Positions 50,501 through 55,073 of a stretch of DNA of 58,374 bases are shown here, piece by piece. The position numbers and the translations under genes are program-made. Under the pieces are notes generated by a model. That model was not told the origin of the DNA, made no database searches, and worked only from the letters and a program-made list of their open reading frames with translations. Numbering within the stretch: the first letter of the stretch is position 1; each line of letters opens with the position of its first letter. The DNA comes from Lysobacteraceae bacterium (GTDB taxonomy: Bacteria; Pseudomonadota; Gammaproteobacteria; Xanthomonadales; Xanthomonadaceae): contig JBQCJG010000306.1 in NCBI GenBank assembly GCA_051952955.1, positions 1 to 58,374 of the forward strand. The letters run 5' to 3'.

Positions 50501-50713
50501 TCAGCAGCAGCGCGAGCTTCCGCGTCCGTAGCGCGCCTGCACGCGATCGGCGAAGAACGCCTCGCGGGTCATCGGCACGCGGTCCGGATGGCGACGCCGC
50601 AGGTGCGCGACGTACAGGTCGTAGTCCGGCACGCCGACGATCAGCCGGCCGGTCTGCGCCAGCCAGCGCCACGCCGCGCGCAGCGGCTCAACGAACGGCG
50701 TCGAGCGCGACAT
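50501..50713 (-). CDS. YbdD/YjiX family small protein (cstA partner)
   Basis: GVPDYDLYVAH..HPD..M..EAFF..RY..RCC; overlaps cstA end. Confidence 0.9.
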   Translation of the reverse strand: MSRSTPFVEPLRAAWRWLAQTGRLIVGVPDYDLYVAHLRRRHPDRVPMTREAFFADRVQARYGRGSSRCC

Positions 50714-52745
50714 GCGGCGTCTCCTGCACGCTCGGCTGCGCCTGGCGGCGCGCGGCCAGCGCGGCGCGCAGCCCCAGCACCAGCATCAGCACCACCACGC
50801 CCATGAACAGCACGCACAGCGCGGCGTCGAGCTGGTTGTTGGACACGATCCGCTGCATCTCCTGCAGGCTCTTCGCCGGTGCGACCAGTTCGCCCTTCGC
50901 CAGCGCGTCGCCGTACTTGCGTGCGTTGGCGAGGAAGCCGATCTTCGGATCGTCGTGGAAGAGCTTCTGCCAGCCCGCGGTCATCGTGCAGACCAGCAGC
51001 CACGTCGTCGGCAGCAGCGCCACCCACAGGTAGCTGTCGCGCTTCATCTTCACCAGCGCCACGCAGACGAAGATCATCGCCATGCCGGCGAGCATCTGGT
51101 TGGCGATGCCGAACAGCGGCCACAGCGTGTTGATGCCGCCGAGCGGATCGGCCACGCCCTGGTACAGGAACCAGCCCCAGCCGGCGACCGCCAGCCCGGT
51201 GCAGACGAGGTTCGCGGTCCAGCTCTCGGTGCGGCGGAACGGCGCGTAGGCCACGCCGATCACTTCCTGGATCATGAAGCGCGCCACGCGCGTGCCGGCG
51301 TCGATCGTGGTGAGGATGAACAGCGCCTCGAACAGGATCGCGTAGTGGTACCAGAACGCCAGCATGCCGTCGCCGCCGAACAGGCCGTGCAGGATCTGCG
51401 CCATGCCCACCGCCAGCGTCGGCGCGCCGCCGGCGCGCGACAGCACGGTGGTCTCGCCGATCTCGCGCGCGGCCGCGGTCAGCGCGTCGGGCGTGATCGT
51501 GAAGCCCCAGGCCGAGATCGCCTGCGCCGCGGATTCGGGCGTCGTGCCGATCAGCGCCGCCGGCGCGTTCAGCGCGAAATACAGGCCCGGGTCGAGCACG
51601 CAGGCCGCGATCAGCGCCATCACCGCGACGAACGCTTCCATCAGCATGCCGCCGTAGCCGATCAGGCGCGCGTCGCGCTCGTTCTCCAGCATCTTCGGCG
51701 TGGTGCCGCTGCTGATCAGCGCGTGGAAACCGGAGATCGCGCCGCAGGCGATGGTGATGAACAGGAACGGGAACAGCTTGCCCGCGAACACCGGGCCGGT
51801 GCCGTCGGCGAAACGGGTGATCGCCGGCATCCGCAGATCCGGCAGGGCGACGCAGATCGCCAGCGCCAGCAGCACCACGGTACCGATCTTCAGGAACGTG
51901 CTGAGGTAGTCGCGCGGCGCCAGCAGCAGCCACACCGGCAGCACCGCGGCGACGAAGCCGTAGCCGATCAGCATCCACGCCAGCGCTTTCCCGTCGAAGG
52001 TGAAGCGGGCTGCCCAGTCCGGCGACGCGGCGACGTGGCCGCCCGCCCAGATCGACAGCAGCAGCAGCGCGAGGCCGATCAGCGAGACTTCGAGGATGCG
52101 GCCCGGCCGCAGCCAGCGCAGCCACACGCCCATCAGCAGCGCGATCGGGATGGTCGCCGCCACCGTGAACGTGCCCCACGGGCTGGTCGCCAGCGCCTTC
52201 ACGACGACCAGGCCCAGCACCGCGAGCAGGATCACCATGATCGCGAGGATGCCGACCATCGCCACCAGCCCGGCGGTGTGGCCCAGTTCGCTGCGGATCA
52301 TGTCGCCCAGCGAGCGACCGTCGCGGCGCACCGACAGGAACAGCACCAGGAAGTCCTGCACCGCGCCGGCCAGCACCACGCCGAACAGGATCCAGAGCAT
52401 TCCCGGCAGGTAGCCCATCTGCGCTGCCAGCACCGGCCCGACCAGCGGGCCCGCGCCGGCGATCGCGGCGAAATGGTGGCCGAACAGCACGCGCCGGTCG
52501 GTCGGCACGTAGTCCAGGCCGTCGTTGCGCCGCCACGCCGGCGTCGCCCGGGTCGGGTCCAGCCGCAGCGCGTGGTCGGCGATGTACTTCGAGTAGAAGC
52601 GGTAGCCGATCGCGAACACCGACACCGCCGCCGCCAGGATCCAGAACGCGCTGATCGTCTCGCCTCGGGACAGGGCCACCGTGCCCAGCGCGAAGGCGCC
52701 GAAGATCGACACCGCGCCCCAGCCCACCGCCTTCATCGCCGTCAT
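50688..52745 (-). CDS. cstA: Carbon starvation protein CstA / BtsT-like pyruvate or peptide transporter
   Basis: FGHHFAAIAGAGPLVGP, APRDYLS, CGAISGFH, LWPLFG; start at MTAMKAVGW. Confidence 0.95.
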   Translation of the reverse strand: MTAMKAVGWGAVSIFGAFALGTVALSRGETISAFWILAAAVSVFAIGYRFYSKYIADHALRLDPTRATPAWRRNDGLDYVPTDRRVLFGHHFAAIAGAGPLVGPVLAAQMGYLPGMLWILFGVVLAGAVQDFLVLFLSVRRDGRSLGDMIRSELGHTAGLVAMVGILAIMVILLAVLGLVVVKALATSPWGTFTVAATIPIALLMGVWLRWLRPGRILEVSLIGLALLLLSIWAGGHVAASPDWAARFTFDGKALAWMLIGYGFVAAVLPVWLLLAPRDYLSTFLKIGTVVLLALAICVALPDLRMPAITRFADGTGPVFAGKLFPFLFITIACGAISGFHALISSGTTPKMLENERDARLIGYGGMLMEAFVAVMALIAACVLDPGLYFALNAPAALIGTTPESAAQAISAWGFTITPDALTAAAREIGETTVLSRAGGAPTLAVGMAQILHGLFGGDGMLAFWYHYAILFEALFILTTIDAGTRVARFMIQEVIGVAYAPFRRTESWTANLVCTGLAVAGWGWFLYQGVADPLGGINTLWPLFGIANQMLAGMAMIFVCVALVKMKRDSYLWVALLPTTWLLVCTMTAGWQKLFHDDPKIGFLANARKYGDALAKGELVAPAKSLQEMQRIVSNNQLDAALCVLFMGVVVLMLVLGLRAALAARRQAQPSVQETPHVALDAVR

Positions 52746-52879
52746 CGTCGCGCTCCGCCTGGTGTCGTCCCCGGTCGCCTCGACCGTGCGGAAAGGGTGT
52801 CGCCGAACAGCCCCGCGGTCACTGCGCGGTGCGGCATGGGACGCTTGCCGCCGCGGGGGGGCGGCAGCGGACCGCGCGG

Positions 52880-53575
52880 CCCCCCCCCGCCCCGGGGGGG
52901 GGGGGGGGGGGGCCCGCCGGGGGGGGGCGGGGCGCTCGGAGCGGTGGAAGGCGATGCGCTCGTGACCATGGAGCGGCCCGCGATTCCTGCGTGCGGCATG
53001 TGCGCGCCTGCCGCCACGTCGCCCCTCATCCGGCCTTCGGCCACCTTCTCCCCGCAGGCGGGGAGAAGGAACAACGACGACCTTCTTCGCGTTTGACTTT
53101 CCCTCAAGCGGAAAGAAGGATTGCTGCAGGCGGGACGCAAAGGACGTCGGCGCTTCGCTTGTCCCTCTCCCCGCGTGCGGGGAGAGGGTGCCCGCAGGGC
53201 GGGTGAGGGGAGCGATCGGAGCGGTGGAAGGCGATGCGGTCGTGACCATGGAGCGGCCCGCGATTCCTGCGTGCGGCATGTGTGCGCTTGCTGCGGCTTC
53301 GCCCCTCATCCGGCCTTCGGCCACCTTCTCCCCGCGGGCGGGGAGAAGGAACAACGACGACCTTCTCCGCGTTTCCCTCACCCACGGGCGGGAAGAAGGA
53401 TTGCTTCCAGCCGTGATGCGAGGAACGTCGCCGCTTTGCATGTTTCTGTTCCCGTGCGTGGTGCGAAGTAACGCCGACGGTATTGCCTGCGCGTCGTGTC
53501 GACCTTTCCGCGATCACTCCGCGTCGTCCCTCTCCCCGCTTGCGGGGCGAGGGTGCCCGCAGGGCGGGTGAGGGG
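52880..53575. repeat. Array of five alternately oriented 48-bp BoxC/intrastrand-triplex-like elements, including a 280-bp tandem duplication
   Basis: Type A CCCTCTCCCCGC-NN-GCGGGG(A/C)GAGGG-T-GCCCGCAGGGC-GGGTGAGGGG at 53163-53210 and 53528-53575, with a degraded copy at about 52883-52930; inverted type B CCCCTCATCC-GGCCTTCGGCC-A-CCTTCTCCCCGC-NN-GCGGGGAGAAGG at 53022-53069 and 53302-53349. Confidence 0.9.
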
Positions 53576-53918
53576 CGGCGAGTGCGGCCACGATCGCCGT
53601 CAGGACGTCGTCCATCCGGAGCAGGACATCATCGTTCCGGAAGCGGATCACGCGGAATCCCTGTGTTTCCAGCCAGCGCGTGCGGGCGTCGTCGTACGCT
53701 GCGCGATCGAGATGCTGGCTGCCATCGACTTCGACGATCAGCCTGGCTTCAAGGCACACAAAGTCCGCGACGAATCGGCCGATGGCGTGCTGTCGTCGGA
53801 ACTTCCGGTCGAGCAGGCGCCGGTCGCGCACGTATTGCCACAGCGCACGTTCGGCATCGGTCTGCTGCCGGCGCAGAGTGCGCTCGTGATGACGGGGGCG
53901 GGGTCCGCGCATGGGCAT
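53514..53918 (-). CDS. DUF559 / YcjD-like endonuclease domain protein (Vsr-like PD-(D/E)XK fold)
   Basis: LRRQQTDAERALW, KFRRQHAIG, ADF, IVEVDGSQH, D..R..WL..QGFRVIRF.N. Confidence 0.9.
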   Translation of the reverse strand: MPMRGPRPRHHERTLRRQQTDAERALWQYVRDRRLLDRKFRRQHAIGRFVADFVCLEARLIVEVDGSQHLDRAAYDDARTRWLETQGFRVIRFRNDDVLLRMDDVLTAIVAALAAPHPPCGHPRPASGERDDAE

Positions 53919-54059
53919 GTTCCGGATCGATGCCGGAAGGATGCTGTGGTGGATGATGTGCGGAGATCGGGATTGTCCGAACGCAATGTCGGTGAACGGC
54001 GTGGCGTGCGGGGTCCAGTACCGATCGATGCGCGGAGGCGGGTTGCGAGCGTCTCAGCC

Positions 54060-55073
54060 CTACAGCCACTTCACCTTCTTCAGATAGCGGTACAGCACGA
54101 TGCAGATCGTCGCGACGACGAGGATCATCACCGCGTAGCCGTGGCGGGTGTGGATCTCGGGCATGAACTCGAAGTTCATGCCGTACCAGCTGGCGAGCAG
54201 CGTCGGCACGGCGAGCAGGCCGGCCCAGCCGGCGAGTTTCTTGACCACTTCGCCCTGGTGGATGGCGACCATCGACAGGTTCACGCTGAGCGCGGCGCCG
54301 AGCATCTCGCGCAGGGTGTCGATGCCGTCGTTGACGCGGACCACGTGGTCGAGCACGTCGCGCAGGTAGAGCTTGGCCTCGTCGGAGAACAGCGCCATCG
54401 GGCTGCGGCTGAGCTGCGCCAGGATGTCCTGCAGCGGCGCGACGGCGAGCCGCAGTTGCGTGAGTTCCTTCTTCAGCTCGTACAGCTTGACTATGGTGTC
54501 CTTGCGCCAGGTCTCGGCGAAGATCTCCTGCTCGAGGTCGTTCAGTTCGTCGCGGAAGTCGTTGACGATGGGCTGGTAGTTGTCGACGATGAAATCGAGG
54601 ATGCCGTACAGCGCGAACGCCGGGCCCTGCGCGAGCAGCTCCGGTTCGCGCTCGAAACGGTCGCGCACCAGCCGGTACGACAGCGACGCGCCGTGGCGCA
54701 CGGTCACGAGGAAGCGCGGGCCGATGAAGACATGCGTTTCGCCGAAGCGCACGTGGCCGTCGACCAGCTGCGCGGTGTGCACGGCGATGAACAGCGACTT
54801 GCCGTAGGCCTCGATCTTCGGGCGCTGGTGCGCGTGGTGCGCGTCCTCGATCGCGAGGTCGTGCAGGCCGAATTCCTCCTGCAGCTTGTCGAGCAGCGGC
54901 TCCTCGGGTTCGTACAGGCCGACCCAGACGAAGCTGCCGTCGTCGACCGCGAGCGCGTCGCTGATGTCGTCCAGGCCGATGTCGGTGCGCACGCCCTGGC
55001 GGTACACGGCGCAATTGACCACGCAGGCCGGCAGCGAGGGCGCGGCGGCGGGGGCGGGAGACGGCGTCTGCAT
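54060..55073 (-). CDS. corA: CorA family Mg/Co transporter
   Basis: HQRPKIE, YLRDVLDH, YGMNF, MPE. Confidence 0.93.
   Translation of the reverse strand: MQTPSPAPAAAPSLPACVVNCAVYRQGVRTDIGLDDISDALAVDDGSFVWVGLYEPEEPLLDKLQEEFGLHDLAIEDAHHAHQRPKIEAYGKSLFIAVHTAQLVDGHVRFGETHVFIGPRFLVTVRHGASLSYRLVRDRFEREPELLAQGPAFALYGILDFIVDNYQPIVNDFRDELNDLEQEIFAETWRKDTIVKLYELKKELTQLRLAVAPLQDILAQLSRSPMALFSDEAKLYLRDVLDHVVRVNDGIDTLREMLGAALSVNLSMVAIHQGEVVKKLAGWAGLLAVPTLLASWYGMNFEFMPEIHTRHGYAVMILVVATICIVLYRYLKKVKWL

Follow-up and report, generated by a model that had tools for sequence, protein, structure and literature searches.

A stand-alone DUF559 nuclease gene and its flanking BoxC/TM-type repeats in a Lysobacteraceae genome: a candidate enzyme for a widespread repeat family

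A DUF559 gene and its adjoining repeat array

Does the small nuclease gene that lies between corA and cstA in a Lysobacteraceae genome belong together with the array of short structured repeats beginning in its last codons, and, if so, what might the enzyme do to the repeat? The window analyzed is a stretch of 58,374 nt (contig JBQCJG010000306.1 of assembly GCA_051952955.1), and features of the locus are listed in Table 1. A preliminary description had placed a stand-alone DUF559 gene between the two host genes, with its C-terminus (PHPPCGHPRPASGER) read from the first repeat copy. Both points were confirmed, the former by the open reading frame and by Pfam matches for all three genes. The same description counted five 48-bp copies in alternating orientation. 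Four are readable as such, whereas the fifth is a poly-G/C stretch that cannot be read as written.

Table 1. Features of the corA–cstA locus in window coordinates
Feature	Position	Strand	Remarks
cstA (PF02554), host gene downstream of DUF559	50688..52745	minus	Pfam
Probable copy 5, garbled to G/C runs	52883..52932	minus	68% to copy 3; inferred
Two tandem units, each an inverted copy pair plus spacers	52883..53405	.	Period 280 nt, 243 nt at 84%
Repeat copy 4, inverted	53022..53069	plus	10/10 valid triads, triad 8 = T-A.A
Repeat copy 3	53163..53210	minus	10/10 valid triads, triad 8 = C-G.G
Repeat copy 2, inverted	53302..53349	plus	10/10 valid triads, triad 8 = T-A.A
DUF559 (Vsr-like PD-(D/E)XK) nuclease gene	53514..53918	minus	ORF, 134 aa, stand-alone
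Repeat copy 1	53528..53575	minus	C-rich strand in gene sense; overlaps last DUF559 codons
DUF559 leader, 140 nt	53919..54059	minus	Gene-proximal half aligns with leader of intact cassettes
Slot of upstream inverted copy, now decayed	about 53996-54050	.	Weak alignment, inferred
corA (PF01544), host gene upstream of DUF559	54060..55073	minus	Pfam

The garbled stretch occupies the slot of copy 3 within the 280-nt duplicated unit, and differs from copy 3 mostly by A or T changed to C or G. Given that the assembly contains 39 runs of at least 12 G or C, many of them close to contig ends, copy 5 is probably a real copy with miscalled bases. The low-complexity runs themselves (window positions 52860-52935 and 38 other places in the genome) suggest base-calling failure at strong hairpins, and repeat counts from this assembly are probably a floor. 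Alternating copies in the window pair as inverted repeats of 51–56 nt with 80%–83% complementarity, and the tandem units read as a local expansion of the array comprising copies 2–5.

An HMM built from the copies matched nothing but the array on this contig (E ≤ 0.01), and the triplex detector run over the window found no repeat outside it, in agreement with the initial impression that the element is absent elsewhere in the window. It is not rare in the genome, however, as the same long-linker variant was detected by HMM on 7 other contigs. Three Rfam matches to the window all fell far under gathering scores, and a promoter and terminator scan of positions 52700-54200 found none. Among sequencing runs matching the window, one DNA run contained 0.58 of the words and others small shares, with no RNA run listed. 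The mechanically called cstA frame (50688-53441, minus strand, 917 aa) starts at an ATG at 53441 and extends upstream through the array, an extension that is probably due to chance, since the CstA match in Pfam lies only downstream of the ATG at 52745 and the DNA is 70% GC.

On its G-rich strand, the repeat consists of a 10-nt pyrimidine arm, a 6-nt loop, a complementary purine arm, a 12-nt hairpin linker, and a 10-nt tract mirroring the purine arm. Purine-motif triads are valid throughout copies 2–4, and 9/10 are valid in copy 1, where a single substitution disrupts one triad. Triad 8 alternates along the array, with C-G.G in the odd-numbered copies (1 and 3) and T-A.A in the even-numbered ones (2 and 4). 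Across 121 distinct long-linker copies from loci and genome, a set whose search pattern constrained five triads fully and two others in part, it was C-G.G in 18 and T-A.A in 97—that is, one or the other in 115/121, with all three strands switched—and a single ancient event may account for this switch. Folded with DNA parameters, either strand forms both hairpins. Each intact copy fits a predicted purine-motif intrastrand triplex that may form in vivo, and appears to be a long-linker variant of the BoxC/PIT/TM_ECO repeats. The repeats are not due to chance, because a detector for the hairpin plus third tract returned 59 matches in the whole genome, compared with none in two shuffled versions and 3 in a third. 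Forty-eight of the 59 are clustered.

The likeness to BoxC/PIT repeats proposed at the outset holds for architecture, namely a pyrimidine arm, a purine arm and a mirror purine tract giving C-G.G, T-A.A and T-A.T triads, and fails for the loop lengths of TM_ECO. Elements of both kinds are mostly intergenic, lie on either strand, form two types of inverted pair and vary in copy number, and one K-12 copy lies beside ycjD, a DUF559 gene. The window repeat nonetheless has 10 triads and a second loop formed by a 12-nt linker with its own hairpin, compared with 3 nt in TM_ECO, and this longer loop puts it outside the TM_ECO consensus: against loops of N3-6 and N3, the first loop of the window repeat is 8 nt when the 9-nt consensus is applied and the second is 12 nt, and the pattern failed. 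The long-linker form would escape published triplex searches (loops of 1–6 nt). TM_ECO oligonucleotides fold into a triplex (CD/NMR), with a stable triplex undetected in vivo (Holder et al. 2015, PMC4666352). In the passages concerned, the same authors report no linked mobility gene, leave the origin of BoxC/PIT/TM_ECO open, and describe repeats known since the 1990s and present in hundreds of genomes, with no known origin or partner (PMC4666352); the words "ycjD" and "endonuclease" are absent from the main text of that article. BoxC is likewise listed without a partner in the relevant part of Cozzuto 2008, and CIR repeats are, as far as the passage on them goes, a different element carrying GANTC (PMC2229807).

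Co-occurrence of DUF559 genes and repeats

Every one of the four DUF559 genes in the window's genome has the repeat, in a variant peculiar to that gene, and the three outside the window are each bracketed by an inverted pair whose variant differs from gene to gene. The background for a repeat in a 1.3-kb window of this genome is 1.1%. Enrichment of the motif within 500 bp of DUF559 genes, an expectation of the preliminary description, was borne out: using two detectors, a repeat was found within 500 nt at 30/30 top-scoring DUF559 loci of the family vs 0/30 GIY-YIG loci from the same genomes. Repeats also accompanied 29/30 DUF559 loci in the genus and, with the strict detector, 21/27 phylum-wide, the six misses showing the motif by eye in longer-linker or shorter-stem forms. 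In a set of seven loci, six from plasmids and one from E. coli K-12, the repeat was detected at 3/7; visual inspection of the four misses, which come from Deinococcus and cyanobacteria, shows related motifs. One Caulobacteraceae genome had the repeat at 3/4 of its DUF559 loci, and 15 of 22 full-length relatives in named genomes had it nearby, the remaining seven having none within 450 nt.

The arrangement around the gene was scored over 103 loci. Hairpins were outermost at 65, while 20 loci had one-sided repeats of the same polarity, 6 had the other polarity, and 12 had none; at 13 loci the upstream copy was the only one. The 3′ end of E. coli K-12 ycjD is built like that of the window gene: a degenerate copy occupies its last codons, and about 170 nt farther downstream lies TM_ECO 9 in inverted orientation. 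At the Deinococcus plasmid loci (L298 and L301), the repeats flank DUF559 in opposite polarity, with the third tract outermost. There are 1–6 DUF559 paralogs per genome (4 in the window's genome), and only 18 of 72,556 plasmid records match.

Genome-wide counts, in which kin are not independent, point the same way as the individual loci. Across 149 of the 151 genomes of the family set (G066 and G076 were left out), the median number of hairpin cores was 63 in genomes with a strong DUF559 match (n = 87) vs 1 in those without (n = 62), and five or more cores were present in 83/87 vs 17/62. Within genera containing both classes, genomes with DUF559 had more cores in 18/20, such that repeat copy number tracks the presence of the gene, as had been anticipated. 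There were exceptions in both directions, with at least 10 cores (up to 65) in 13/62 genomes lacking a strong match and fewer than 5 in 4/87 genomes possessing one.

Protein identity also predicts repeat similarity (Mantel rho 0.33, above all 2000 permutations, over the 64 rows left once 4 redundant ones and 7 lacking a repeat were dropped), although co-variation of a protein and its flanking repeats can be explained by linkage alone, and the nearest protein neighbor beat the same-genome paralog as a predictor of the repeat in only 17/24 cases. A variant-specific count over whole genomes is a stronger test, and the window locus makes one available, with one protein subclade, one repeat variant, and the genome as the field of comparison. 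Among 43 genomes of the genus, the median long-linker count, which includes copies beside a DUF559 gene, was 33 in genomes with the subclade of the window gene (12), 3 in those with other DUF559 genes only (23), and 0.5 in those with none (8). Subclade carriers are scattered over a corA tree of 29 genus genomes and exceed their sister genomes in 5/5 comparisons. The expected co-variation of protein and repeat is therefore upheld, by the Mantel correlation and by a variant count that tracks the subclade. Three genomes (G168, G166 and G169) hold 35–40 long-linker copies with no subclade gene detected, G166 and G169 being 85%–86% complete. The idea that the long-linker variant vanished after gene loss in G165 and G182 was weakened, as related copies remain: G182 has lost the window gene and kept related long-linker copies.

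History of the locus and turnover of repeats

At the same corA junction, G164 carries an orthologous DUF559 gene (84.5%), whose array differs from that of the window and whose in-frame copy has decayed. An unrelated gene occupies the site in G165, G168 shows repeats but no DUF559 gene, and in G182 a junction of 238 nt retains the leader together with half a repeat. Because the window's genome (G000) branches outside (G164,(G165,G182)) in the corA tree, the DUF559 gene is best regarded as ancestral at corA and later lost or replaced. Neither the G182 junction, a deletion relic by virtue of its leader and half repeat, nor the G165 junction, which holds the unrelated gene, was accepted as a pre-insertion site, and the search for a clean empty site at corA–cstA in relatives thus came back without one. 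An upstream copy was seen by eye at 9/11 aligned subclade loci, being absent in the window and in G164. The decay of this copy marks the locus as an old, partly collapsed cassette rather than a fresh insertion. We suggest that the gene would have been at corA before the four close species split, with the upstream copy subsequently lost and the downstream copies expanded as a 280-nt unit. Twenty-nine corA junctions in the genus extend into downstream sequence, and 3 of these have DUF559 within 1.5 kb. The 3′ end of corA (window 54060; L099-L127) is also an insertion hot spot of the genus, holding unrelated genes, R-M clusters, Fic-type genes and other repeat arrays.

Twelve subclade loci were located: four after corA, two after a PDZ-hydrolase gene, one each after tsf, scpB, DUF938 and IS110, and two at contig ends. 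The subclade occupies five or more chromosomal addresses within one genus. Restriction genes lie within about 3 kb at 9/12 of these loci, and in seven of the nine cases further repeats stand at the distal end of the cluster. In G161, the order is corA, three ORFs, a bracketed DUF559 gene, hsdR-S-M, repeats and cstA. As cassette and far repeats bound such cargo in relatives, R-M cargo has likely been lost here when repeats recombined with each other, and the locus in the window would be the remnant left after removal of G161-like cargo. Clusters of type I R-M, GmrSD or Mrr genes with the DUF559 cassette at one end and repeats at the other were observed at L209, L210/L130, L211, L213/L229, L214/L231, L216/L230 and L217. 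Two further loci are unusual, with a subclade gene carrying an internal stop beside IS110 (L190, in G158), and a whole gene-plus-repeat cassette duplicated in tandem (L135, in G123).

At orthologous sites of the four close species, repeats were found to be present, absent, expanded, or swapped for REP-type doublets, and these differences and swaps indicate that the repeats are mobile. The ileS-lspA site (L223:3165-3330; L304-L306) has a triplex-repeat doublet in G000 and G182 and a REP doublet, which we take to be GTAG-type, in G164 and G165, a distribution that conflicts with the corA tree. An inverted long-linker pair also lies in frame inside a gene of the methylmalonyl-CoA-mutase family (L226:192-332, G000:C171), and in relatives this loop may hold a different triplex variant or REP-type repeats of other kinds, or be empty, with 34–35 aa between anchors in 4 genomes. 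Since both sites also collect unrelated REP-type repeats, they appear permissive for any repeat. The idea that variant overwriting at the mutase loop is specific to DUF559 was rejected, given that the loop takes other repeat families (2/35 loci unparsed), and pntA was discarded as a comparison site because its flanks are not orthologous. Comparison of corA–cstA, the mutase loop and five other orthologous sites, all between different species, yielded no clean empty site, cut position or target-site duplication.

The nuclease and a candidate mechanism

The window protein matches PF04480 over profile positions 6-108 of 109 (E 3.1e-40; 136.9 bits vs a gathering cut-off of 20.6), with the DUF559 domain at residues 11-113 of 134. 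It scored 105 bits against NCBIfam PRK09767 (YcjD equivalog; curated cut-off 218), and is classed on this sequence score as a YcjD homolog, not an equivalog. Residues E23, D52, E63, D65, H69, D76 and R79 are kept; across 42 sequences, E23, D52, E63, D65, G66, D76 and R79 are invariant and H69 is at least 90% conserved. The Vsr catalytic set (E, D, H/x, H, D) is present, as mapped via the VsrA and I-Bth0305I papers, and the spacing of E23/D52/D65/H69 equals that of VsrA E73/D102/D115/H119. A fold search with the structure model (mean pLDDT 83.9) ranked 3HRL first (E 3.4e-9) and the I-Bth0305I catalytic domain 3R3P second (5.4e-5), with Vsr weaker. The Vsr-like nuclease fold attributed to DUF559 from the start is therefore supported by Pfam, by the model matches, and by Vsr/EDxHD catalytic residues. 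Median dN/dS was 0.14 over 54 of the 55 pairs among 11 subclade genes, indicating purifying selection.

A lone Vsr-like domain can nick DNA and makes no covalent intermediate. DUF559/YcjD has previously been grouped with Vsr, in passages that mention no repeat (PMC3424549, PMC1189080). Vsr and Caulobacter VsrA belong to the same Pfam family as the window protein, with the first four catalytic residues equally spaced and no linked cytosine methyltransferase; VsrA differs in its length of 177 aa and in being proposed to act on T:G mismatches, and "repeat" appears twice in the main text describing it, one passage being about the LexA box (PMC12907096). The EDxHD homing endonuclease I-Bth0305I has the same catalytic set, is the second-best structural match, and, according to the passages concerned, offers a precedent for a Vsr-like fold in selfish spread via host recombination, Vsr itself recognizing distortion (PMC3239194). 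In contrast to I-Bth0305I, the window protein has no separate DNA-binding domain—its domain starts at residue 11 of 134, with no N-terminal NUMOD region—and its gene is intergenic and free-standing between repeats, with no intron or intein host.

The system had also been likened to REP-RAYT. As summarized in part by Bertels and Rainey (bioRxiv 10.1101/2021.07.10.451892), REPIN-RAYT systems resemble the present one in that a small enzyme gene on the chromosome has its cognate short folded repeats on either side, dispersed copies number from tens to hundreds and mostly cluster, each enzyme lineage has a separate repeat population, and occurrence on plasmids is rare. Membership did not hold, as there is no HUH/tyrosine enzyme; the resemblance is one of manner of working, with an enzyme gene flanked by its cognate repeats. 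DUF559, being a nuclease of the Vsr-like PD-(D/E)XK kind rather than an HUH/tyrosine (IS200-like) transposase, would be unable to rejoin strands itself. Its repeat is three-tract rather than a simple palindrome, and the gene is not single-copy at a fixed address, with 4 paralogs here and a subclade at several sites, nor is it wholly absent from plasmids.

The DUF559 gene bracketed by inverted BoxC/TM-type repeats would thus constitute a widespread cassette, of which the window holds a partly collapsed copy. In the mechanism that we favor, repeat DNA would transiently fold into the predicted triplex, the DUF559 protein would nick its own repeat variant when folded, and host repair and recombination would then copy or swap repeats between sites. 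Nicking with host copying is preferred because a lone Vsr-like domain nicks, Vsr reads distortion, and I-Bth0305I uses host recombination, and copying is assigned to the host because DUF559 has no strand-transfer chemistry. We give this predicted activity roughly an even chance, and rank it ahead of a role in repair, a cargo or helper role, an RNA partnership, and coincidence. A stronger version is possible, albeit tentative: DUF559 proteins may be triplex-specific endonucleases of a transposase-free selfish element, each paralog nicking its own repeat by shape and triad code, with host recombination copying repeats, cassette and R-M cargo.

Repeat family and DUF559 were each already known, and the link between them appears to be new. 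We found no literature linking DUF559 to BoxC/TM-type repeats in open full texts, a scope that leaves aside the original BoxC, PIT and CIR papers. Further ORF-flanking repeats are reportedly listed in the work of Chen and Shapiro (2003) on CIR repeats. The link provides DUF559/YcjD, an unassigned family of nucleases, with a candidate substrate and the BoxC/PIT/TM repeats with a candidate enzyme, and DUF559 is likely, as a predicted role, the missing partner that spreads this repeat family. If the link is catalytic, it would amount to a system that resembles REP-RAYT but relies on unrelated chemistry, and one that possibly reads three-stranded DNA and reshuffles defense islands. Were the stronger, triplex-specific version true, an enzyme would have an intrastrand DNA triplex as its natural substrate, and the origin of BoxC/TM repeats would be explained. 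The link is testable in E. coli K-12, where ycjD lies beside TM_ECO 9.

Among the alternatives, the strongest is that DUF559 is a Vsr-like repair nuclease, resolving mismatches or stalled forks at folded repeats, or T:G mismatches as proposed for VsrA, with the repeats spreading by other means. This could account for the genome-level correlation, with repeats persisting where the enzyme makes them tolerable, and fits the restriction genes near most subclade loci. It also fits the literature, in which VsrA, the one DUF559 protein for which we found genetic work, drives an SOS response in cells without a cytosine methyltransferase and is a proposed VSP enzyme (PMC12907096), and in which the repeats act in vitro as blocks to polymerase and serve as markers of variable loci (PMC4666352). 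Nonetheless, we consider repair unlikely, as it leaves the fixed-polarity bracketing, the paralog-specific variants and the tracking of variant with subclade unexplained; no linked cytosine-C5 methyltransferase adjoins the window gene, whose neighbors are corA and cstA, and the methylases near relatives' DUF559 genes are of the N6 type.

Somewhat more doubtful is that the repeats are IS/MITE-like cassette ends moved by another, unlinked enzyme, with DUF559 as cargo or as a TnsA-like one-strand helper. The inverted terminal arrangement of the repeats, the multiple addresses of the subclade and the number of paralogs per genome are compatible with such ends; however, no transposase adjoins the cassette in 11/12 subclade loci (IS110 at one), paired ends should also enclose non-DUF559 cargo, the gene has kept its place at corA in four species, and plasmid matches are few. 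A repeat transcript acting as RNA partner of the protein, whether guide or scaffold, was raised in the preliminary description and is improbable. Copy 1 does lie within the mRNA, alternating copies can pair at length, and both hairpins fold on either strand, yet no Rfam family reached its gathering score, repeats occur on both strands genome-wide, no variable guide slot is evident, and the loci with an upstream copy only are not explained. The proposal was not sustained, given that a purine-motif triplex, to which the conserved mirror tract conforms, is DNA-only according to Holder et al., who state that it cannot form in RNA (PMC4666352). Coincidence, whereby gene and repeats gather in the same insertion hot spot, draws on the highly variable corA 3′ junction in 29 congeners, with its unrelated genes and other repeats, and is largely refuted and very improbable in view of the GIY-YIG controls, the fixed spacing and polarity, and the variant-specific pairing.

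The repeat-encoded tail of the protein was compared across the 75 loci that have a downstream copy: the gene runs through the copy at 60 (22/19/19 by frame), ends ahead of it at 10 and within it at 5. Because the repeat is read in all three frames or the tail is absent, the tail is taken as incidental read-through, and a functional protein-repeat fusion, as implied by the earlier wording "physically fused," was rejected; the tail of the structure model has a pLDDT of 55–61. At four loci (L013, L016, L083 and L147), DUF559 frames run 1.0–1.5 kb beyond the downstream repeat, and are possible in-frame fusions to neighboring genes.
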